Shown here: piece by piece, positions 899 to 56,974 of the stretch
Layout: the number at the start of each line of letters is the position of its first letter
Numbering within the stretch: position 1 is the first letter of the stretch
Origin: Alphaproteobacteria bacterium
GTDB taxonomy: Bacteria > Pseudomonadota > Alphaproteobacteria > MPNO01 > UBA830
Length of the DNA: 64,000 bases
Reading direction: 5' to 3'
Assembly (NCBI GenBank): GCA_964291215.2
Contig: OZ219791.1
Span: 608,001-672,000 of the forward strand
Made by a program: the position numbers and the translations under genes
Notes under the pieces: model-generated
Database searches by the model: none
Seen by the model: the letters and a program-made list of their open reading frames with translations, nothing else
What the model was told of the DNA's origin: nothing

Positions 899-2010
899 CT
901 ACCCTGGTACCCGACTGGGGCTGAATATGTAGTGACGTTGGTCGCGTGGGTGCCGTTTTGGGTGTCATCGAGTTGTTGATTCCGGGAGGCTTGCCTCTAT
1001 AGGCCGGGACAACGACGATCAGGGTCCCGGTCTTCAGCGTGCGGAACCAGGTCTCGATAACAGGACCCGGGAGGCCAGCCCGCAAACCTGGACGCCGGGA
1101 AGAAACCGATGATGGCAGATCACGCGCCTGATGTTGGCGGCGCGGGCGTCGGCAGACCATCCACTTGTCCCGCGCCCGCAGCTGCCAGGTCGCGAAGCCG
1201 ATCCCGCGTGCCGTGGTGCTGCGAGCGGACCCGATAGCGCATCTGGCCGCGCCTCCCGGAGCTGGCGATCGTCGGTGCCACCCACCGGCGAGACCGGACC
1301 GAGATCCTGCAGCAGGCGGGCGAGCCCGGTACGTCATCGGACGGGACGGCGGGCACGACGGTCGGGGACGCGCCGTGGCGGCGGAAGCTCGAGACCCACG
1401 CGCTTGGCGAGCGCCGGCAGCGCCTGCCGCCGACAGGCACGGACGACCAGGCGCGTTGCGCCAGCCGGTGCGCTCGCGTGACCAATGGACGGCAACCCGC
1501 CGCCGGAACCACAAGCTGCATCTCGTCTCGCTCGCACGATATCGACAAGGCGGAACCCCGGACCGTCTGTAGACAACCACGGAAAACACCATCGCGGACA
1601 CCCGCAAAAACCTTGCCAGGAAACATGGATGCTCGGGATTCCAGGTCGCCATCATCACCAGGTGCTTGTCCTCGCCGTCGCCGACCGGATCCACGGTGAC
1701 CTCGCCAGGCTCCTCCGGAGAACATGCGAGTGGCTTGTCGGTACAGTCCCGCTCAAGGGTGTCGAGGCCATGAGGCCTTGGTGGAGGAAGGACGATGCCG
1801 AGCGCCGAGGCAAGATCAGGTAGGGCCGCACGCGGCAAGGCACAGTTCACCCTTCGCGTTGCGTCAGTCCTCGCGCTCGCACAATCCCTGCGCCAAGGCG
1901 TGCTGCTCTCGGCAACCGATGTCGCCTTCAGCCAATCAACCGTCGTCGTGGACAGATGTCGAAAGTCAATTCTCATGCGCCACTATATAGGGCCTCATGA
2001 ACGTTGAAAG
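899..2010 (-). mobile_element. Decayed mosaic of DUF4338-containing IS4/Tn5-like elements
   Basis: The left end CTTTCAAC at 2010 and MRIDFRHLSTTTVDWLKA match the copies at 37281, 48264 and 52875. A second DUF4338-like fragment (WRNAPGRPCLSA...QMRYRVRSQHHG...GIGFATWQLRARDKWM) and the IS4 catalytic remnant IETWFRTLKTGT lie near 1020-1060. Many frameshifts. Confidence 0.75.
1477..1637 (+). repeat. ~160-bp dispersed repeat, copy 1 (probable end of an unidentified mobile element)
   Basis: CGTGACCAATGGACGGCAACCCGCCGCCGG...AAACCTTGCCAGGAAACATGGATGCTCG recurs in inverted orientation at ~56145-56292. Confidence 0.8.
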
Positions 2011-8904: not shown

Positions 8905-10146
8905 TCAGCGGGCAAAGTCCACGGCTAGATTGTCTGCTTCCACGCGCTCGATGTCGGGCAGGCGGTTGCGCCTTTCCGCCATTTCGTCGGGGTCCCACCC
9001 GGCGGCGAGTTCGCGCAGCCGCGGATAGACCTCGTTGTTGAAGAGCGTCATGGAGCGCAAGGTCCGCTCGGCGGAAAGATGGCCGGCCTGGCCCATCATC
9101 AGGAGATGACCGAAGCCGCCCGAATACTCCCAGAAGGCCCTGATCTGCTCGAACACCTGGTCCGGGGTTCCCGCGAACACGTTGCCGCGGCGCATATGCT
9201 CCCCGAGCTCGGTGCTGTAGGCGGCGCCGGTGCCCGAGACGCGGGCGCCGCGCATGAGGCTGGCGCTGAGCTGCGGCGGATGATAGCCGGGCGGGTTTCT
9301 CCACTGTTCGGCGACCTTGTTGGCCTGCATGTACCACATCAGGTGGTTGGCGCCGTCCGTCGCTTCGCGCTCGTTGCCGCCGACATGGATCAGCGCGCAG
9401 TAGGCGAGGCGGTCAAGCGGCGCGTGGTTGCCGTGGAAGGCGCGGTAGTTTTCACGGTAGGCGTCGAAGATCGGCCGGACGCGGCCGTAACCGGCCAGGA
9501 ACACGGCGGCGACATGGCGGTGCCGCGCCACCGGTTTGGTGCTTCCGGCGCTTCCGGTCGTGATCCAGACCGGCGGGTGGGGCTGCTGCCACGGGCGCGG
9601 CCAGATGTTGACCTGGCGATGATGGTACCAGCGGCCCTCGAAGTTGAACGGGCCGTCATGGGTCGTCCACGCCTTGAGGATCAGGTCGTGGGCCTCCCAC
9701 AGGCGCTCGGTGCCCTTGTAGGGCAGGATGTTCGCCGCCGCCGCCTCGTAGGGCACGCTGCGGACGAAGCCGCATTCGAGGCGTCCCCTGGAGATGACGT
9801 CGACCATCGCCATTTCCTCGGCGACGCGAACCGGCTGGTTGCGGTTGGGGAGCGGGTTTCCGAGGATCAGCAGCCGCGCGCGCTCGGTCTGGCGGGCGAG
9901 GATGCCGAGCATGATGGGGGCGGCCGGGACCATGCAGGTCGCGGTCTGGTGGTGCTCGTTGAGCATGATCTCGAGTCCCAGCTCGTCCGCTGCGCACCAT
10001 AGGTCAAGATACTGGTGATAGAGGCGGCTGGCGTTTTCGGGATCGCAGAGCCGGTTTGGCAACTCGACGCGGATCGACTCGTAGCTGTCGGAGTCCGGAA
10101 GATCGGGATAGCAATCTTCCGTGAAGAACCAGGTCTTCAGGGCCAT
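8905..10146 (-). CDS. Luciferase-like (LLM class) flavin-dependent oxidoreductase, paralog 2
   Basis: NEHHQT, RVAEEMAMVDVISRGRL, PRPWQQPHPPVW, GTPDQV. Confidence 0.92.
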   Translation of the reverse strand: MALKTWFFTEDCYPDLPDSDSYESIRVELPNRLCDPENASRLYHQYLDLWCAADELGLEIMLNEHHQTATCMVPAAPIMLGILARQTERARLLILGNPLPNRNQPVRVAEEMAMVDVISRGRLECGFVRSVPYEAAAANILPYKGTERLWEAHDLILKAWTTHDGPFNFEGRWYHHRQVNIWPRPWQQPHPPVWITTGSAGSTKPVARHRHVAAVFLAGYGRVRPIFDAYRENYRAFHGNHAPLDRLAYCALIHVGGNEREATDGANHLMWYMQANKVAEQWRNPPGYHPPQLSASLMRGARVSGTGAAYSTELGEHMRRGNVFAGTPDQVFEQIRAFWEYSGGFGHLLMMGQAGHLSAERTLRSMTLFNNEVYPRLRELAAGWDPDEMAERRNRLPDIERVEADNLAVDFAR

Positions 10147-11241
10147 CGCGGCGGCGCTCCGAAACTGTGCCGACGGTCAGCGAACGAACTCGACTCCGAA
10201 ATTGCCAAGGTCGGCACCCTCCTTGTCGGCGATCGCCCGGCTGCGCTCGGCGACCTCCGCCGGGTCCGATGTCTCGGTGAGCTCGCGCAGCCGCGGGTAG
10301 ACCTCGTCAGCATAGAGCCGCATTGAATTTAGCGCGTCGTCGTCGGACAGGAAACCGGCCTGGCCCATGATCATCATGTGGCCGAAGCCGCCCGAATACT
10401 CCCAGAACGCCTTGATCTGTTCGTAGACCTGGTCCGGGGTTCCCGCGAATACGTTGCCGCGCGCCATCTGCTGGTCGAGGGTCGGATTGATCGGAACGCC
10501 GGAGCCGGTCACGCCGCGCATCACGGCCGCGGCGACGGCGGGCGGATGGTAGCCCGGCGGATTGCTCCATTCCGGCGGCACCTTGTTGGCTTCCATGTAC
10601 CACAGGAGCTGGCGGGCACCCTGTTCGGCCGTGCGCTCGTCCTCGCCGACATAGCACAAAGCGAGATAGGCCAGGCGGTCGAACGGCGCATGCGTGCCGT
10701 GGGTGGCAAGATAGGCGTTGCGGTAGCCGTCGAAGATGCTTCGGATCTTCGGATAGCCGGCGAGGAAGACGGCGCCGACATAGTCGTGTTCGGCGACCGG
10801 CACCGCTGTGCCGGCGCTCCCCATGGTGATCCAGACCGGCGGGTGGGGCTGCTGCCACGGGCGCGGCCAGATGTTGACCTGGCGATGATGGTACCAGCGG
10901 CCCTCGAAATTGAACGGGCCGTCATGGGTCGTCCACGCCTTGAGGATCAGGTCGTGGGCCTCCCACAGGCGCTCGGTGCCCTTGTAGGGCAGGATGTTCG
11001 CCGCCGCCGCCTCGTAGGGCACGCTGCGGACGAAGCCGCATTCGAGGCGTCCCCTGGAGATGACGTCGACCATCGCCATTTCCTCGGCGACGCGAACCGG
11101 CTGGTTGCGGTTGGGAAGCGGGTTTCCGAGGATCAGCAGCCGCGCGCGCTCGGTCTGGCGGGCGAGGATGCCGAGCATGATGGGGGCGGCCGGGACCATG
11201 CAGGTCGCGGTCTGGTGGTGCTCGTTGAGCATGATCTCGAG
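9560..11241. repeat. 416-bp near-identical direct repeat inside the two LLM genes (9560-9975 and 10826-11241)
   Basis: By-eye alignment found only two differences (AAGTTG/AAATTG and TTGGGGAGC/TTGGGAAGC). The flanking gene parts are clearly diverged. Confidence 0.93.
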
Positions 11242-37280: not shown

Positions 37281-38415
37281 CTTTCATCCCAACACCGTTA
37301 ACTCTTGGTTCATGAGGCCTTATATAGTGGCCCATGAGAATTGGCTTTTGACATCTGTCCGCGACGACGGTTGATTGGCTGAAGGCGGCGTCGGGGGTGA
37401 GAGTCTCATATGGCACAGTTGCAGGCTCAGTACCATTTGTTCATCTCATGCGGCCAGTGCCGAGGTGTGATTTGGGCTGATGTTGTCGTTGGCTGGTGCG
37501 TCGTCTGCACCGATCATGGCCGTCCACGCGCTCTCGAAGCGGCCGGATTCGAGCAGGGCGCGGAAGGTGATTGTCCGCCGACGATGCGCCAGTGCATGCC
37601 GGAGCGTTTCATGCGCTGTGTGACGAGGGTCTTGTTTGCCGCCTCGACAATTCCCGAGCCGGTTGCTTCAGCGCGTGGTAGCGCATTCGGTGGCGATGCT
37701 TGCGGAAGAAGGACAGTTCCCTGTCGACATCGGCCCGTTGGCTCCGCGGTGTCGCGAAGGTGGCGCAGCGCCCGGATCACCTGTCGATGCCGCGGGGGTC
37801 GTGGCAAAATCCTGTCCTGAAACGGGCGATTGTCACGAAAATCCGTTTTTGCCGCTGCCTCGCGACCGCACAACCATGTTAAGTCAATGACCTGGATGCG
37901 CCATACGAGAACTGCACCCCCTGCACCACCGGCCAGCACGGCTGACACGCGATGTCGGCGCGGGTTGCCAGATCGCGTTGCAGACCCGTCCCCACAGGCC
38001 GGAAAGTGGGGCTGAAGCCGAAGACCAATCGGAGCCCGCACATCCGGTCATCGGCAGCGAGCGAGGGAAGGTGGCAAGAGAAGATGCCTGACCCGAACGC
38101 CGTCAGGAAAAACAATTCGTGATCAGTAGGGGTGCACGACGATCTCACGCTGCTAATCCAGCGGCGACCGGTGAGATTTTTCGGTCTGCGTCGCGCTGCA
38201 ATCGTGCCGCCAAGGCTCAATGAGACCTTCTCGGCGCGAAAAATTGCGATCAAGAGGCGATCTGTGATGACGCGAGCCCCAACGCACTCGGATTTCGCGT
38301 CTCGGAATCAGCATAGGATCACCGTGGTAGGAGTGAGTAGATACTCGAAATCTACCGAAAAATGCGGACACTCGATATGCTGGAATCAATGGAGTTAACA
38401 GTGTCAGGTTGAAAG
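37281..38415 (+). mobile_element. Internally deleted DUF4338-IS4 element (both ends retained) with nested fragments
   Basis: Left end CTTTCATCCCAACACC plus ~110 bp matching 48264/52875; right end ...AACAGTGTCAGGTTGAAAG. The flanks GAGACCGGC and GAGGCCGGC match at 8 of 9 positions (target duplication). Confidence 0.75.
37394..37920 (-). mobile_element. ISKra4-like transposase remnant
   Basis: GSGIVEAANKTLVTQRMKRSGMHWRI.GGQ C-terminal motif. Imperfect inverted ends GGGGTGAGAGTCTC (37394) and GAGAACTGCACCCC (ending 37920). Confidence 0.6.
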
Positions 38416-47116: not shown

Positions 47117-47399
47117 GCGATGCCCGGAGAATCCCCAAGCTCCTGCCGCTGGCCGGCCCGAATAGCCGGGGCTTGCGGCGCCATGTCCGCCTCCTTCCTG
47201 TAAGCGTTCGTTCGTGCGGTGAGGTGTTGTTGTTTTCGTCCGTTTGACGGGCTTTTGTCAGGGAGTTCCAGCGTCACCCGGAGCGGTTTCGTGCACCGGG
47301 ATGCGCGGTGAGGGGCACTGGCGCCATGCCGTGTTTTCCGCGTTGGTTGCGGTTTTGTCCCGGCGCTGCGGAGGAGGAGCTGAGCACCATCCCGTGCCG

Positions 47400-47880
47400 G
47401 TTGCAGGGGTCTGAGGGTCCGCTCCATGCGGAGCGGGCCAGATGTCCTTCTTCGGCTTCTGTCATGTCGGTCGTAGCGGCCGCTGGTTGTTCCGACGCGG
47501 CCGGCAGACGCCGCGGCGCGGGACCAGGGTCTCGCAGGGCACGGGCGGGGTGTTGCAGCGCGCGGTCCATGCGGCGTTCGAGAAGCAGCGGCTCGCCGTT
47601 TCGGTCATGGACCGCGTAGCGCATCTGCGCGCCGACCAGGCGCGTGTATCCGAGGCAGTGTCAGCGGACGACGAACTCGTTCCACAACCGGCCTTCCCGG
47701 GTGCCCACGATCCGGAAGTCGGCGGGCGGAGCTCGTCGAGGGTCTTCGGGGCGGCGGCTCGGTGTCCGACGTGATCAGCTTCGGGGCTGGCGGCGGCAGA
47801 AGGCGCGGGCGATGGGGTCCGCTCCGTGATCGTCGCAGCACTGCGCGACCATGAAGTCGCGCCCTCGACCTCACGGCGGC
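47400..47880 (-). pseudogene. Stand-alone DUF4338 (DruA-like) gene remnant inside the IS66
   Basis: Manual translation across frameshifts: REGRLWNEFVVR*HCLGYTRLVGAQMRYAVHDRNG...PVPCET...SGRYDRH...PKKDIW. Confidence 0.7.
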
Positions 47881-48263
47881 GCCGCGAATCTCCGCCGCCT
47901 CTCCGGGCTCACGGCAACCAGGGCGACAGATCGCCGGGCCGCCGTTCTCCGCGCAGGCGCCAGCGCAGAACATCGAGGCCGCTCCTCGCGACCGTGCCGT
48001 GTACATGACAGCCGTCCATGCTGTCGGAACCGAAGCCGGGCTTCCGCCCGGGCCCCTGAGGGCCCTTTCCCCGAAATTGTTGTCCATGGTCGACGAACAC
48101 GCGATGGTTGAGCGCAGCGGCCTGCCTTCCGGCGCCACTTTCGGAAGCCTCGGCGCTTCCGCAAACAGCGACCGCAGTCTCCGGCGCCGCCTGCGCGGCC
48201 TCGAACGTCGCCGGAAGCAAGGCAGTCGAGCCGTGTTCAGGCGGCAGATCTCCGCGATCGATC

Positions 48264-50381
48264 CTTTCAACCGGACATGCTTAACTCGTTGTTCATGAGG
48301 CCGTACATGATGGCCCATGAGGATCGGCTTTCGACATCTGTCCGCGACGACGGTTGACTGGGCGGCGTCGGCTGCCGAGGGCAGCACCCGCTCGTCCCTG
48401 GCGCGGGGATTGTGCGAGCGCGAGGGGTGGCGCAACGCGAAGGGAGAGCTGTGCCTTGCCTCGGCACGCGCGGGTCTGCCTGATCTTGCTGCGTCGCTCG
48501 ACCTCGTCCTTCCTGCGCCCAGACCTCATGCCTTCGACACCCTTGAGCGGGACTATCCCGACCGAGCACTGGCCGGTACCCTGGAGGACCTTGGAGAGGT
48601 CACCGTAGAGCCGGTCGGCGAGGACAAGCGCCCGTTCGATGATGGCGACCTGGCATCCCGAGGCGTGTGCACCCGGGGCCCGTGTGAGCTATTGGATCAC
48701 CTCGTCGCGCCTCGGCGGCTTGGTGTTCGGTGCGGCGAGTTGGCACCAGAAGGCGCGCGACGACTTCTGGTCCCAGGGAGCCCGTGTCCTCGGCGAGATC
48801 GTCAACAACGATCGCTTTCTGATTCTTCCGTCGGTACATGTGCAGGAGTTGGCCTCCCATGCCTTGGCCTGCCGGCGTCTGGCTGCGGACTGAGAAGTAC
48901 GGGGTGAGGCCGGTACACGTATGTGGGTCCCGAGCACAGCGGCGTGAGCTACCGGGCGGCGGGCTGGGAGCGCTGTGAGAAGACGACCTCGGGTCGACCT
49001 CCCGGGGCCACGGGCCCGGGCGTGCAGCGCGCGGTGTGGATGAAGCCCCTGGCGCGCCGTGCTGTGCCGGGAGCGTGTCTTGGGCCAGGCGGCGCCCCTG
49101 GTCGGTGATGACCGTTGGGCGATGCGGGAGTACGCCCGCAGCCGCCACAGTGACGTGCGCATCCGCGAGCGCCTGATCACCATGGGCGTGGAACGATCGT
49201 CCCGGAGAGATCCTGCCGACGATCTTCCCCGGCGAGGCGGAGCAGAAGGCGGCCCTGTTGTCGAATCCGAGGGTGATCATATCCTCGAGGGGCATCAGGA
49301 AGCGATGGTGGAACGCTGCCGTGCGCAGCACCTGATCCTTCCAGGACACGACATTCTTGAATTATCGTGGTTTGAAGGCGGGTCTTGTCGACATCGGCGG
49401 CTCGGGCATGGCGGCCCATGTCGGGGTTGCCTTCAGCGAAGGCGGCTCATCCCTCGGACTGTTCCATCTCGACGCCGACTTCCGTCTCGAGCCAGAAGAA
49501 GGACGAGGTAGACGACAAGGAGAGCCGGCGGATACGACAAGGAACTGGCCTGTCCTTCGACAAGGGTGCTGGTGATCTGTGACCGTGAAGGTGACATCTG
49601 GGACCTGCTGGCCCGGAGCACGAGTGCTGGTGCGCGTCCGGCGCTCGACACGGCGCCCACTGCAACGGGCGCATGCCGGGACCTTTGGAACTCCATGGCC
49701 GATGAGCCGTGCATCGCCACGAAGATGATCGACATCGAAGCCTGCGGAGGGCCGCGTCGCCGCAAGGAGCGCAAGGGCCTCGAAGTCCGCGCGGCAAGGG
49801 TCGACCCGCCGGACCAGAAGCCCCGGGGAACGCCGCCGCTCTCCATGATGGCGAGTCACGGAACTCGACCCGCCCGCGATCCTCTCGACTGGATGCTGCT
49901 CACCACCGAAGGCGACGGCACCGCAGCCGATGCTCTCAAGACCGTCTCCTTCTACGAGAGGCGATGGTGGATCGAAGAGTACTTCAAGGCCCTGAAGGTC
50001 GGCACACGGATCGAGGACCGGCCAGGCCGACGATCTGAGGAAGTGCCTGGCCTTCGACGCCATCACCGCATGCCGCGTCATGAGCGTCTCGCACGCCCGA
50101 CACCCCGGCCCGTCACATCGTCCACCGCGACGAGATCACGGTCCTTGCCCTCCACAAGACCGGCCGACAGCGCACGCCGCGTGGACCTCCCGAACCGACC
50201 AGCCTTCGCCGTCGAAGTCGCACGCTTGGCAGGCTTCATTCCCAGAAAACGCCAACCCCTGCCGGGAACCGAGAAACTCTGGCAGGGATACAAACTCCTT
50301 CTCAACTTCGTCGAACATCACCGAACCATGCGGAAACTCGATATGCTGAAAGAAATGGATTTAACAGTGTCCGGTTGAAAG
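48264..50381 (+). mobile_element. IS4/Tn5(IS50)-like element encoding a DUF4338-transposase fusion, pseudogenised but with intact boundaries
   Basis: TIRs CTTTCAACCGGACA (48264) and TGTCCGGTTGAAAG (50381). Perfect 10-bp TSD GCGATCGATC at 48254-48263 and 50382-50391. VNNDRFLILPSV, ICDREGD, YERRWWIEEYFKALK (Y-2-R-3-E-6-K), LAGF...PG..KLWQG. Confidence 0.9.
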
Positions 50382-51184
50382 GCGATCGATCCATTCCCAC
50401 CCCTCCAGCTGCGGCCGGCGCAGTCCGGAAGGTCGCGCCGACAATGCGCCCGACAACAGCACAGGATGATGAAGGGCCACAGGCGCGCCAGCTTCTTGCA
50501 GGCGCCGTAGCGGTCGCAGACCGGATACATGGGGGCCGTCCGCGAACAGCTTCGCCGCGATCTCGGCGCTGCGCGAGGGAGAGAACCGCGTCACGGCTGA
50601 CCGATGTCCGGAGCCAGGCGCGACTTCCGGACCTCCCTCAGGGCCCGGATGCATCGGCATGGCGCAGACCCCGGTGCGCGAGGATCGCGTCCCGAAGCGG
50701 CTCGAACAGGGGCAGCATCCGGCTCGCTGGCCAGCGTTCCCGGCGAAAGCCCCTGGACGCGGCGCAAGGGCCGCATGCACGCGCTCGTGCAGCACATGCG
50801 TCCACACCCGAATGCGGTGCCGGGAAACAGCCGCCACCGGTGGACCGGGGCAGTCACGGCCCCGGCGGACAATCCGCCGCTTTTGATCTCGATGATCCTG
50901 GTGCGAACCGTTGGCAACGCAGCACGAGCAGGCGTCCTCCGCCACCTCCAGCCGCTCCTCCACTTCCTCGAGCGCCGGCCGCGGCCAGGAGTGCCGCGCT
51001 GCTGGCCGCGCTTCGATGACGCCCGCTGCCTCTTGTCGCTCTTGCGCCCGTACATCGACGACCTGTTCGAACGAAGCTTGTCGTTCTCCGCCTCGACCCT
51101 TCAGAACCTTCATCGCGGTCTTCAGGCTGGCATTCTCCATGCGCAGCGATACCACCGTCGACCGCTTTTGCGCCCATGTACGAG

Positions 51185-52148
51185 GCCCAGGACGCCCTTG
51201 TAGCACGGGCCGATCTCTTGCCCGCGCTTGCGGTGCGGGAACTTGCACGTCAGGGTCCCATGACATGGAGCCACTTACTGTTGATCCGAAATCCGGTCTT
51301 GTCGACATCGGGCGTTGCAGGAGGTGCGCCACGGCGGCCTCCTCCCATGACGCATCGTGAAAGCATAGCCGAGGCCTCGGAGAGCTTGATGCCGGAGATC
51401 GCCTGCACGAACGCGACGGCACGGCGCAGGGACAGCATTTGGGCGACCAGCAGGTTGATGACGAGGGCCTGAATGCCGTACTGCACGGGATGTTGTCGGG
51501 GAACCGGCCCCGGGCCTTGCACTTCGGGCATTCCTCGGCGTCGACGCGGCGCGACCTCGAACACGATGTCGTGCGGCGCTCCCGATCGACGGGGCCGTCG
51601 ATGTCAGCGCCGCAGGCGTCGCAGGCCGCGACCGTCTCCTCGACGATGGTCTTGCGCAGGTTGTCGCCCATCTGCCGGTTCGGCTTCGGGCCCTTGCCGT
51701 TGCTTCCGGCACGCTCTTGTCCGTCTGTGACGGCGGCAGACCGGAGTTCCGGCTCGTGCGTGGTCTTCTCCAGAAGGACGACGATGAGGATGTCGAGCAG
51801 GATGACGAAGACGCGGATCACGGCCTCTTTCGCCACCTTGCCGGCAGCGCCGCGGTCTTGGCCGCTTCGAACTCCTCGCGCGCCGCCCGTCGCCATCACC
51901 CGGCCTTGCGCTTCATCAGCGCGCCGCCTCCGAGATGCGTTTCCACATACAGATCATGCAGGGGCTGGAGCCCCGGAAGCAGCTGGCACAGCCCGCTCGT
52001 CGCCTTCGATCCAAAGTAGCCCACTGGCGGTCCCCGTCGTTCTCGATTACCACCACTAAACGAATCGGCCTGCAGTGTCAAATCTTCACGAAAACCCGTT
52101 CGTTGCTCTACCCCGACATCAAGCCGGAACCAGGGGGTGAGCAGTTAC
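51185..52148 (-). mobile_element. IS66-family element: left end, Dam-like methyltransferase fragment (GTG at 52024), then transposase remnant
   Basis: GTAACTGCTCACC end at 52148; GYFGSKATSG..YVETHLGGGALMKRK; then LLEKTT, NSGLPPSQTDK, CDACG, CPKC, DKTGFRINSKWLHV, HRKRG. Confidence 0.75.
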
Positions 52149-52810
52149 GTGCCAACTTGGGAAAAGACAATCGGCGTGGTCACCGGAGCCCAAAGGCAGA
52201 GTTGGTACGAAGTTACCGTGACAGGGCAGGAGGCCATGCCGGCCCGACCCCGATGCCCCTGCGCAGGGATGCGGCGGTCGCGGCCGCCCGCATGATCGAT
52301 GCCGTTAACCGGCTTGGCCATGCCTTTCCGCCCGACGCCTGCGCGACCGTCGGTTTCATCGATTCGAGTCCGAACTCGCGCAACACGATTCCCGGCCGGG
52401 TCTTTTTCACCATCGACCTGCGCCATCCGGATGACGTGACGCTGGCAACGATGTGCGGCTGCCTGCGGGCCGATCTGACTGGGATCGCAGAGGCCGCAGG
52501 CTGCGTCGTCGAGATCGCCGATTTCTGGGAATTCCCGGCCACACCGTTCGACGAAACCTGCGTTTCCGCCGTGCGCAGCGCTGCCGGGCAGGGCGGTTAT
52601 CGCTGGCGCGACATTGTCTCCGGCGCCGATCACGACGCCGTCTACATCGCTCGTATCGCTCCGGCCGCCATGATCTTCATCCCGTGCGAGGGCGGCATCA
52701 GCCACAACGAATTCGAGAACGCCGTGCAGGCGGACTGTGCCGCTGGCGCTCAAGTACTGCTTCAGGCTGTGCTCGACCGTGCGACGGGCTGCGACAGCGC
52801 AGGGATCTGA
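52149..52810 (+). pseudogene. M20-family Zn amidohydrolase (N-carbamoyl amino acid hydrolase-like), 5'-truncated
   Basis: IGVVTGAQ..WYEVTVTGQE / HAGPTPM..RRDA, NTIPG, SGADHDA, GISHN. The N-terminal half is missing at the IS66 junction and there is a frameshift near 52235. Confidence 0.85.
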
Positions 52811-54935
52811 ACGGCGCCAACTCCGAGAGCGGGGAAGCCGCCATGGCTGGGCGCGCTTGGGGTGATATTCTTGCCTTTCAACCCAATACCATCGACTCTT
52901 CGTTCATGAGGCCTTATATAGTGGCCCATGAGAATTGGCCTTCGACATCTGTCCGCGACGACGGTTGATTGGTTGAAGGCGGCGTCGGTTGCCGAGGGCA
53001 GCACGCCCTGGCGCAGGGATTGTGCGAATGCGAGGACTGGCGCAACGCGAAGGGCGAGTTGTGCCTTGCTGCGTGCGGCCCTGCCTGGTCTTGCCTCGGC
53101 GCTCGGCATCGTCCTTCCTGCACCAAGGCCTCATGGCTTCAACACCGGAATCGTCGAGCGGGACTATCCCGACAAGGCACTCGCATGTCCTCTGAAGGAC
53201 CTTGGCGAGGTCACCGTGGAGCTGGTCGGCGACGGCGAGGACAAGCGCTTGGCCCGGTCGATGATGGCGACCTGGCATCCCGAGGGCGAGGCGCGCGCAC
53301 CCGGCGCCCGGGTGAGCTACTGGATCACCTCGTCGCGCTACGGCCGCCTCGGCGGCTTGGTGTTCTGTGCGGCCAATTGGCATCAGAAGGCGCGCGACGA
53401 CTTCATCGGCTGGTCCCAGGGAGCGCGTGATGTCCACCTCGGCAAGGTCGTCAACAACGCTCGCTTGCTGATACTTCCGTCGGTGAATGTTCCGGAGCTG
53501 GCCTCCCATGTCCTGGCTCGTGCTTGCCGGCGGCTTGCCGCGGACTGGCACGAGAAGTACGGCGTGATGCCGGTTCTGGCCTACACCTATGTGGGTCCCG
53601 GGCACACCGGCACGAGCTACAGGGCGGCAGGCTGGGAGCGTTGTGAGAAGACGACCTCGGGTCGACCTCCCGGGGCCACCGACCAGGGTGTGCAGCGCGC
53701 CGTGTGGATGAAGCCCCTGGCGCCTGACTGGCAAGACGTGCTGTGCCGGGAGCCCAGGCGTGTCATGGGCCAAGCTGCCCCCCTTGTTGATGATGACAAG
53801 ACCGACTGGGCGATGAGGGAGTACGGCCGTAGCAACCACAGTGACGTGCGCATCCGCGACCGCCTTGTCACCATGGGCGTGGAACGATCGTCCCGGAGAG
53901 ATCCTGCCGATGATCTTCCCCGGCGGGGCGGAGCAGAAGGCGGCCTACCGTTTGTTGTCGAACCCCAAGGTGACGATGGACCATATCCTCGAGGGGCATC
54001 AGGAAGCGATGGTGGAGCGCTGCCGTCCGCAGCGCCGGATCCTTGCCATCCAGGACACGACGTTCCTGAATTGCAATGGCCTGGAGGCGGGTCTTGCCGA
54101 CATCGGCGGCTCGGGTGCCCTTGGCATTGCGGCCCATGCCGGGGTCGCCTTCACCGAAGGCGGCTGTGCCCTCGGCCTGTTCCATCTCGACGCCGATTTC
54201 CGTCTCGATCCGGATCACGAGGAGGACGACAAGGAGAGCCGGCGCTGGCTCGACGGGTACGACAGGGCCGTGGAACTGGCCGCGGCCTGTCCCTCGACAA
54301 AAGTGCTGGTGATCTGTGACCGTGAAGGCGACACCTGGGACCTGCTGGCCCGGAGCACTGAGCATGGGGCTGGTCTGCTGGTGCGCGTCAGGCGCTCGAC
54401 ATGCCGCCGCGTGGTCACCGCAACGGGCGCGCACCGGGACCTTTGGGACCACATGGCCGATGAGCCGTGCATCGCGACCAGGCCGCTCGACATCGCAGCC
54501 TGCGGAGGGCTGTGCCGCCGCAAGGAGCGCAAGGGCCTCGAAGTCCGCACGGCAAGGGTCGACCTTGCGCCACCGGACCGGAAGCCCCGGGGAACGCCGC
54601 CGCTCTCCATGATGGCCGTACACGTCACGGAACCCGACCCACCGGCAGATCCCCTTGACCGGATGCTGCTCACCACCGAAGGCGACGTCACCGCTGCCGA
54701 TGCCCTCGACACCGTCTCCCTCTACGAAAGGCAATGGCTGATTGAAGAATACTTCAAGGCCCTGAAGGTCGGCACACGGATCGAGGACCGGCCAGGCCGA
54801 CGACCTGAGGAAGTGTCTGGCCTTCGACGCCATCACCGCCTGCCGCGTCATGACCGTCGAGCGTCTCGCACGCCGGCCAGCCGCATCGTCCACCGCGACG
54901 AGATCACGGCCCTGAACAACTACAAGATCGCTAAA

Positions 54936-56801
54936 TAGTGCCCGCGCGGAAAAGACCGTTTTGGCTGAGATTCCGGCGAAATTTCTGGTTTGATCGCCCT
55001 TCCGGGTCCCGCTCCGTTTTCGGGGGGATTCCTGCTGATTCGCGACGGTATCAGGGCTCTTCCAGCCGAGAAGCCGGACGAGCGGCTCCGTTCCCGCTCT
55101 CGGCGGGTGGGTGGGGTAGAGGGACGCCGCCGTCAGGCGGCGCGTTTTCGTCGTCGTCGGGCCCGTCTGTGCAACAGCAGGCGGTGGACATTGAAGGCGA
55201 CCATGGACAGCGCCACCATCCGCGCAAAGCCGTCCGCCCCACAGGACCTGGTCCATGCCGCGTTGCTCAAGATTGTTGATCGCCGACTTCACGTGCTGTC
55301 GGCGCGTCTCCCGGAACGTCGGGTCAGCTTCCCGGTCCACCCGACCAAGCTTTCTCTTCTTCGGCAGCGCGTCCAGCAGTTCGTCCAGTGCAATCCGAGG
55401 GCTGTGGAAACCGCGATCGAAACTGCACAGGTCGGGGAAGCGAGCCTGTGCTTCCCGGATCATGGGCACCGCATGGTCCACGTCACTGCCCTCCCACAGG
55501 ATCCGGTGGTGCAGGAGGAAGCCGTGCTGGTCCTCCAGCACGGCCACCGGCACGCCGAGTTCCACCGGCACTTGCCTTTCACGCACCAGCGCTCCTCGAA
55601 GATCGAAAACACCTTCTCTTCCTGCGGGATCTTCTCGCCTTAGGCGGCGGTCTACTTGGTCGATCTGCCGGCGGGCATGGTACGACTGGATCTTGAGAAT
55701 TCTCAAGGCTCCGACGCCTTTCTCCACAAGTGCCGGAACCGTCTCCTGCGCTCCAACTCCCGGCTGTCGTCGAGGTACCATCCTCCGAAGAGGCCCGCCA
55801 GATCTCTTCTGAAAGCGCTTCCCGCGGCTCCGATGCTGCCACTGCCGTCACCCCCGCGAGCACGGCTGCGCACCAGACAACGCATCGCATCCCACAGCAG
55901 GTTGACGTCCGTCGGGTAGTGCACCACGAACGAATCGCAGCGGCCCCGCAAGGGACCTTGCCGCTCTTGCGGACCATCGCATGGCCGCTCTCCGCCACCA
56001 GCTGCGATACCTTCTCTAGCACTTCCGGCGTCAGATGGCTCACGTTCTCCAGCACCGTCCGATAGCTGTACCTCGTGTTGTCCCGGATATCGCCGTGGTC
56101 CGGGAACTTCCGAACCGTCTCGTTCACCAGTTCGTGCAGATGATCGAGCATCCATGTTTCTTGGCAAGGTTTTTTGCGGGTGTTTGTGGTGATGTTTTCT
56201 GTGGTTGTCCACAAGCGGTGTGGGATTTGCTCTGCGAGCGAGGCGGCATGAAGCTTGTGGTCCCGGCGGCGGGTTGCCGTCCATTGGTCACGTGAACGCG
56301 GCTACCTTGCCGTCCCCGGGCATGGTAACGTGACTGTCTGGGTTCCAGGTGTCCCAAGGCGGTTCGGTCTCCTCGATGTCGGCCTCGACGATGATCTGCA
56401 GACATTCTCCCCAAGTCGTGTCGTAGAGGGAGACTGTCGATACAGTGCTTCAGGAGACCCATCACCAGGATCTTCCACTGCGCCGGGACGCCCTTTCCTG
56501 TGGGACACTCTCGGAAGAATCCCCTCCTCCAGGATCCTGAACAGCCGGGTCGGCATACACGTGCTGAATCCCGCGCATGTCATCCCGCGGGTCTTTGCTG
56601 AGATCGATCTTCTCGATCGCAACCTGGCCCAATTCCAGCTGCGGAACGTTTCGCATGGCAATTCTCGCGAAGTTTTCCGAAAATCCGGCGGATTCCCGGT
56701 CTGATCGGCCAATTCCCGCCCCAAAGCGGGATTATTCGTCCCCTTCAAATCACGATTTCACCAAAAAAATCAAGCGATTTTATATTTTTCCGCAGGCATT
56801 A
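54936..56801 (-). mobile_element. Decayed ISNCY (ISDol1-like) transposase element
   Basis: Imperfect inverted ends TAGTGCCCGCGCGGAAAA and TTTTTCCGCAGGCATTA. Remnants VELGVPV.VLEDQHGF.LHH, CSFDRGFHSP, SAINNLE.RG, RCDSFVV, HYPTDVNLLWDA. Confidence 0.7.
56145..56292 (-). repeat. ~150-bp dispersed repeat, copy 2
   Basis: Reverse complement of the 1477-1637 segment; it interrupts the ISNCY-like transposase. Confidence 0.8.
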
Positions 56802-56974
56802 GTTACAATTACCGAAAAATGCGGACACTCGATATGCTGAAATCAACGGACTCTATAGTGTCAGGTTGAAAACCCGGCGGCTTCGTTCCGGGTCGCCGCC
56901 GCGGGCGCCAGGCGCAGGGACCCGCGGTTGCGGCCCGTGGGCCGTCGGCTCCGGAAAGCGCGGCCCCGTGGACA

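Follow-up and report, generated by a model that had tools for sequence, protein, structure and literature searches.

Insertion sequences (ISs) are usually seen as transposase-only elements. The IS50 subgroup, as set out in PMC2266710, is defined by a triad spaced D(60-110)D(100-150)E, a Y(2)R(3)E(6)K motif, an 8-9-bp target duplication, ends of the form CW------Y---CA-A--W and a length of 1350-1550 bp. Mom of phage Mu is described in PMC13219725 as using Gly-tRNA on double-stranded DNA, with H58, Y59, R111, S124, D149, R151, Y159 and a helix-turn-helix (HTH)-like insertion all required. DUF4338 is known as the domain of Druantia DruA (PMC7251935) and has already been termed a GNAT (PMC10853773). 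Here we analyse a window of 64,000 nucleotides (C2:608001-672000 of the 6.15-Mb genome of an Alphaproteobacteria bacterium, labelled G000), which holds dead copies of an IS4/IS50-type element. In its intact form the element joins a Tn5-type transposase to a DUF4338 domain that is a predicted GNAT, with Mu Mom as its nearest solved structure, and that we tentatively read as DNA-binding and base-acylating; judging from the modelled fold, we give this reading slightly less than an even chance. Directly established are the element anatomy, the target duplications, the fusion and the selection acting on the domain, as is the fact that numerous deletions of 5-7 nt killed the local copies.

Four left ends reading CTTTCA(A/T)C lie in the window, at 2010(-), 37281, 48264 and 52875, and all belong to one IS4/IS50-type family, as the original prediction had proposed. 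None of the four copies is able to encode a transposase, and all are dead. The copy at 48264..50381 (+ strand, 2118 bp, start codon at 48317) is full-length with both inverted repeats intact, and covers amino acids 1-772 of the fusion protein P0125 in a frameshift-aware alignment. It is flanked on the + strand by a perfect 10-bp target duplication, GCGATCGATC, at 48254..48263 on the left and 50382..50391 on the right. This is seen in the sequence itself and at the empty-site joint, where contigs of three out of three runs join 48253 to 50382, skipping 2128 nt, that is, 2118 plus 10. The copy is nested in another multi-copy repeat, and the empty-site contigs are other copies of that host repeat. 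It also keeps the C-terminal Tn5-like motif that had been noted earlier, with a weak Dimer_Tnp_Tn5 match (E 0.021).

The second copy, at 52875..54935 (+), has the least damaged 5' part, with 11 deletions relative to locus L049, and its 3' end is cut off. Its open reading frame (ORF) 52928-54319 gives a Pfam DruA/DUF4338 match at aa 96-220 (E 8.3e-21), which places the Mom-like GNAT core, as seen in the predicted model of the relative P0131, at 53213..53587 (+). The frame reads on from DUF4338 into the Tn5 DNA-binding region until a shift at ~53875; the remainder of that domain lies, with the DDE core, at 53841..54938 (+) (NCBIfam NF033590, IS4_3, 178.8 bits against a cut-off of 160). The original prediction was right that the two domains are read in frame and that the DDE motifs follow in the next frame, but the single frameshift it allowed for is too few: at 53005-53071 two further frameshifts compensate each other, the frame is broken again at 54792 and 54869, and an ISNCY-like insertion truncates the copy at 54935.

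In genome BLAST no intact copy from the window's own subfamily was found in G000, where the two larger window copies used as queries gave 69 loci of the family, ranging from bare ends to near-full copies. Intact fusions are present in other genomes, as had been anticipated. With residues 46-321 of the 52928 frame as query, 168 of 7,994 scored proteins were recovered, and among the matches listed the closest full-length relatives (P0123-P0126, P0128 and P0129) are 757-776 aa long and 73-81% identical. When GTDB genomes were scanned with P0125, 40 loci came from four Alphaproteobacteria metagenome-assembled genomes. An open frame of at least 748 aa is found in 16 of the 22 near-full loci with both ends, most of which are 2,334-2,375 bp in length. 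Target duplications in these 22 were perfect at 9 bp in 12 cases and at 10 bp in one, carried one mismatch in two and were absent in six, with one locus at a contig end. Several near-identical copies in OY763008 each have a different target duplication, and are therefore a sign of recent movement. The intact element is ~2.35 kb and consists of one ~760-aa frame comprising a helical module, DUF4338 and the Tn5-type transposase; for the ~65-aa N-terminal module, Atlas matches at 0.90 were all unnamed 'mobile element protein' clusters. G000 itself holds P0001, a distantly related DUF4338-Tn5 fusion of 772 aa (L001:2688-5003 in the locus set, ~30% identity, possibly with small in-frame gaps), and 118 of the 120 homologs listed for P0001 have both DruA and Tnp_DNA_bind.

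An AlphaFold model of P0124 (77 sequences, pLDDT 89, pTM 0.84) matches Tn5 transposase in Foldseek with E 2e-28 over ~470 columns. The triad D382, D474 and E619 is spaced D(91)D(144)E, and Y612, R615, E619 and K626 fit Y(2)R(3)E(6)K; the three triad residues are kept in 44, 43 and 43 of the 44 members of the window's branch. Intact fusions score 278-292 bits on NF033590, and the ends match six of the seven positions of the IS50 consensus. By triad spacing, YREK motif and duplication length, and largely by its ends, the family fits the IS50 subgroup; its size differs. It shares with IS50/Tn5 (PDB 1MUH, 4DM0) the Tn5 fold, the triad and YREK spacing, the single frame, the CT-starting ends and mostly 9-bp duplications, but it has some 10-bp duplications, lacks the consensus base at A16 and is ~900 bp longer (2.33-2.38 kb vs 1.35-1.55 kb). 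The extra length is due to the added N-terminal module of ~290 aa, by which the element exceeds the IS50 size range. By analogy with Tn5, the intact element would move by cut-and-paste transposition.

Residues ~95-275 form a GNAT fold in the predicted model. The P0131 domain model (pLDDT 87) was compared with 48,161 solved chains, and Mu Mom (8bv8) ranked first (Z 15.1, rmsd 2.9, 160 residues aligned); ranks 2-50 were other GNATs at Z 12.1-10.6. In Foldseek searches, Mom was the top GNAT match for the full-length model, and for the domain model it came second by E-value with the highest query TM-score. The profile phrog_1384, 'Mom-like DNA modification protein', is matched by 15 of 22 members (best E 5e-06). 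Pfam Mom (PF25680) matches six of 55, all below the cut-off (best 25.8 bits vs 27.1), and gave no match to the window ORF. The GNAT-like fold that had been proposed is thus borne out by modelling. In common with Mu Mom (PDB 8BV8, PF25680, PHROG 1384) the domain has the fold, likely equivalents of H58, R111 and S124, and a G-x-x-Y-x-A-x-x-W/F motif; it departs from Mom in its extra ~65-aa helical module, an ARDxFIGWS insert and the transposase fusion.

Given this predicted Mom-like fold, the element likely marks or binds DNA besides moving. In the mechanism we propose, the added domain would bind DNA and acylate a base near transposase-bound ends or new insertion sites. By analogy with Mom, an aminoacyl-tRNA may donate the acyl group and the N6 of adenine accept it. 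Such a mark could protect the element and its vector against restriction when they enter a new host, or could gate the element's own transposition, and fusion to an end-binding transposase would keep the activity local.

The same structure comparison bears on a different idea, that the domain acylates protein or tRNA and is a cargo, for defence, as a toxin or for addiction, that would make the element useful or its loss difficult. Protein and tRNA-related GNATs are numerous at Z 11-12, the DUF4338 on DndF is suggested in PMC10853773 to target proteins as a co-effector, and DUF4338 is the DruA domain in Druantia type I (PMC7251935). Mom, however, stands 3 Z units higher, and the PADLOC DruA models give E 0.0005-0.007 on four of six DUF4338 proteins and miss the other two. 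An addiction role also fits poorly with a 2.35-kb element that is filled by one frame and has no antitoxin gene, and a toxin is hard to square with the 41 domain matches in G000 and the 70 in a second genome, G002. We regard this idea as improbable.

Two defence systems share the domain. Druantia type I DruA (PF14236) has the Pfam domain in common, over profile positions ~50-225 of 297 only, but the domain described here sits inside insertion sequences, barely scores with the PADLOC DruA models and has no druB-E beside it. A Druantia system was ruled out by the single-frame element without a DruE helicase beside it: the sole PF09369 match in the genome lies at C2:2977327, 2.3 Mb away, in a search that did not extend to druB-D. 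DndF, as presented in PMC10853773, carries the same domain as a variable N-terminal add-on, likewise called a GNAT, but there the domain is joined to a phosphorothioate-restriction protein instead of a transposase, and protein targets are proposed for it. With 41 Pfam DruA matches in G000, fusion genes of the present kind can be miscounted as Druantia defence genes.

Residue conservation was counted in 191 fusions of at least 690 aa (P0113 left out), 44 from the window's branch and 147 others. By motif position, H121, R183, S197, G227 and Y235 of P0124 were taken as H58, R111, S124, D149 and Y159 of Mom. The H121, R183 and S197 equivalents are invariant in 191/191 fusions, and outside the window's branch 132/147 have D or E at the D149 position. 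In the window's branch the motif is remodelled from E-T-F-V-D-x-x-R to Y-T-Y-V-G-P-x-H, with a new conserved His three places past the D149 position in 36 of the 44 members. The chemistry or target of this branch is therefore probably different from that of Mu Mom.

Several observations weigh against a base-acylating role. DNA marking, though likely, is a prediction from fold and sequence, and PMC13219725 states that the substrate of Mom is not predictable from structure. Identity to Mom is 13%, and ordinary protein and small-molecule acetyltransferases come next at Z 12. Alignment of profile A2 to Mom alone with hhalign was not significant (probability 0.24), Mom against the GNAT-core profile gave E 1.6 and no score, and a sequence search of solved structures with A2 gave nothing at E 10. 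Because 160/202 residues align to Mom, over chain range 37-229, where the HTH-like insertion is Mom 175-209, the domain appears in the model to be without this essential insertion. The residue equivalences are themselves inferred, a tool alignment being available for the last stretch only (G227/Y235) and not significant. At the D149 position the window's branch has G in 34 members, A in six, S in two and D in two; the Arg151 position is mostly H (R in 4/44), and the Tyr159 position is Leu in 116/117 of the P0001 clade. The motif that first suggested a likeness to Mom, YTYVGPGHTGTSYRAAGW at 53582..53635 (+), is real, and Mom is indeed the best structural match, but the motif holds G in place of the essential Asp149, and its alignment to Mom over this stretch alone has a probability of 0.24. 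Of the findings that could have spoken against the original prediction, neither unlinked genes nor the lack of a GNAT-like fold was seen; the G, A or S at the Asp149 position in 42/44 and the apparent lack of the HTH-like insertion nonetheless count against it.

The altered pocket raises the alternative that, at least in the window's branch, the domain serves as a binding module, non-catalytic or re-purposed, which would keep Mom's nucleic-acid cleft and would steer or regulate the transposase through target capture, end protection or tRNA-charge sensing. The equivalents of Asp149 and Arg151 are lost in 42/44 and 40/44 branch members, and the domain is still under selection; it is in this branch without the Asp that copies with perfect duplications have recently multiplied, and the pTM of 0.84 for the full-length model suggests a fixed domain packing. 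The invariant H, R and S of the pocket (191/191) argue otherwise, as does the occurrence of the domain both in a gene of its own that closes IS66-like elements and C-terminal to IS66 transposases, for which a diffusible enzyme is the better fit. We judge this alternative unlikely, though not negligible.

The base-acylating reading gains from the evidence on selection. By simple counting over three valid pairs of intact copies (among L022, L023, L024, L031, L038 and L041), dN/dS was 0.30, 0.29 and 0.42 for the GNAT and 0.32, 0.37 and 0.41 for the DDE core, and within the window's branch the GNAT has a mean identity of 0.605 and the DDE core one of 0.548. Selection acts on the module as it does on the DDE core. 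A neutral passenger, acquired once and carried along, could be argued from the death of all local copies and from plain IS50 elements of 1.35-1.55 kb, which according to PMC2266710 move without the domain, but its dN/dS and identity are on a par with those of the catalytic core and it is stably paired with several unrelated transposases. The purifying selection already largely refutes this explanation, which we consider very improbable.

A profile search returned 13,849 representatives at E 0.001 and 8,562 at E 1e-10, with stand-alone forms counted in. Among 55 new representatives of at least 400 aa (from 150 listed), 47 carry a transposase domain of one of five kinds and eight carry none; the profile behind this tally is biased to Tn5-type members, which number 31, followed by DDE_Tnp_1 only (10), IS66 (4), ISAzo13 (1) and IS630-type DDE_3 (1). 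G000 also holds an ISAs1 fusion (L003:2689-4698, in the locus set L001, L003-L006) and stand-alone DUF4338 genes downstream of IS66-like frames, the IS66 label being read from translation; Pfam DruA matches number 41 there, and domain matches number 70 in G002. A quick tree was built from 75 GNAT cores, with true DruA and Mom left out; in it all 38 Tn5-type members lie outside a 96%-supported clade of the other families, and the window's branch is a derived long branch. The tree is sorted by transposase family, with 11 label changes against 33.2 when shuffled. The domain occurs in five of the 41 related genomes searched, a patchy presence that is the pattern of a mobile gene. A broader proposal, that ISs from five or more unrelated families encode a DNA hypermodification writer of Mom type themselves and that the window's branch evolved a new acyl chemistry or target, is possible, if somewhat doubtful. 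Beside these, the single representatives P0311, P0354 and P0367 join DUF4338 to a guanylate cyclase, a MORN repeat and DUF6788; these joins may be read-through artefacts. At L005:3692-6273, beside an IS, we see a patatin-like gene and then an HTH/peptidase-type regulator and a small PIN-like gene, all labelled by reading of translations.

Decay of the local copies has a distinctive signature. Against its relative L049 the 48264 copy is 96% identical with 38 deletions and no insertions, and 30 of the 38 deletions are 5-7 nt. A sister copy, L008 (C2:1772718-1774837), shares most of these deletions. Since it is only nine gaps apart and has its own 9-bp duplication, an already dead copy was probably mobilised in trans, to judge by sequence, the alternative being gene conversion. 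Multi-copy repeats make up ~30% of G000, and in a sample of 120 of its 729 repeat blocks, gaps of 5-7 nt account for 594 of 941 distinct gaps and those of 2-4 nt for 66. In 289 kb of single-copy DNA, G000 is without 35 stretches of 5-7 nt (23 of them 6 nt) vs six in G001, a comparison not polarised by an outgroup. The same peak is found in G002 (loci L062-L091; 87/133) and weakly in G004; OZ220465 and OY763008 show no 5-7-nt peak. Microhomology at the deletions is above chance, yet absent in 22-36%. MutS is present, and since it handles loops up to four nucleotides according to PMC8235422, its range could account for the lower edge at 5 nt. An assembly artefact was rejected, as independent contigs bridge sites 48788, 49529 and 49541 without difference. 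The Mom-like domain was not supported as the cause, as OZ220465 and OY763008 are rich in the same element and lack the peak. Ku-type end joining was looked for, and Ku was not found in the five genomes searched.

A further observation concerns the inverted repeats, which have GANTC with a variable middle base at positions 20-24 (e.g. window 52894-52898; L022-L056). In copies from other genomes, of about five lineages, it is present in 21/22 right ends and 13/22 left ends; the counts in G000 are 4/21 and 9/22 ends. A CcrM homolog is encoded in G000 (E 6e-143 to 6PBD). Dam methylation controls IS50, and by analogy cell-cycle methylation control of the element through GANTC is possible.

The remaining parts of the family in the window are fragments. 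A hollowed copy at 37281..38415 (+) has a 114-nt left end, a 71-nt right end and an interior of other repeats; its flanks GAGACCGGC/GAGGCCGGC are identical at 8/9 positions, so the 8/9-bp duplication reported earlier was found along with the perfect GCGATCGATC. By repeat and BLAST comparison, 1632..2010 (-) is a 5' fragment of about the first 120 codons, with ~20 nt missing just inside its left end; behind it, at 1061-1635 (-), are an ISNCY-like element end and a relic belonging to another, more distantly related DUF4338-IS4 subfamily. The 3' part of the 52875 copy is interrupted at 54936..56801, where the ISNCY-like insertion, itself multi-copy, lies with other debris (119 genomic BLAST hits); a longer copy of this insertion matches NF033593 at E 7e-38, under that model's cut-off. 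A right-end remnant of the family, repeat D9, follows at 56802..56871 (+) and ends in TGAAAA, with no target duplication matching the 52875 left end, at which a sigma-70 scan gave no promoter. Between the two larger copies, 50382-52874, which the original prediction had included, holds other repeats and an M20 peptidase fragment. Multi-copy repeats at 47300-48263 (the host of the 48264 copy) and 50382-52150 (after it) give 30-311 BLAST hits, and the reading frames tried in them had no family match. Rfam gave no match in the window. At 9068-11053 two direct repeats, 82-92% identical and ~1.27 kb apart, are probably a tandem gene duplication.

At title and abstract level we found no publication on a DUF4338- or Mom-transposase fusion, in a search with subscription journals mostly outside its reach, and older accounts of the Mom family may mention one. 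The architecture is already visible in databases, in the JGI protein name of P0231. New in this window are the branch without the Asp and the deletion signature. The chemistry of Mom was solved only recently, which makes the question of a DNA mark directly testable, and a Tn5-type transposase that marks DNA where it is bound would, if true, be a useful tool. If the base-acylating reading is true, the enzyme that moves the element also marks the element's DNA chemically, and a conserved enzyme-like module on thousands of ISs would give them an active means against host restriction or for self-regulation.

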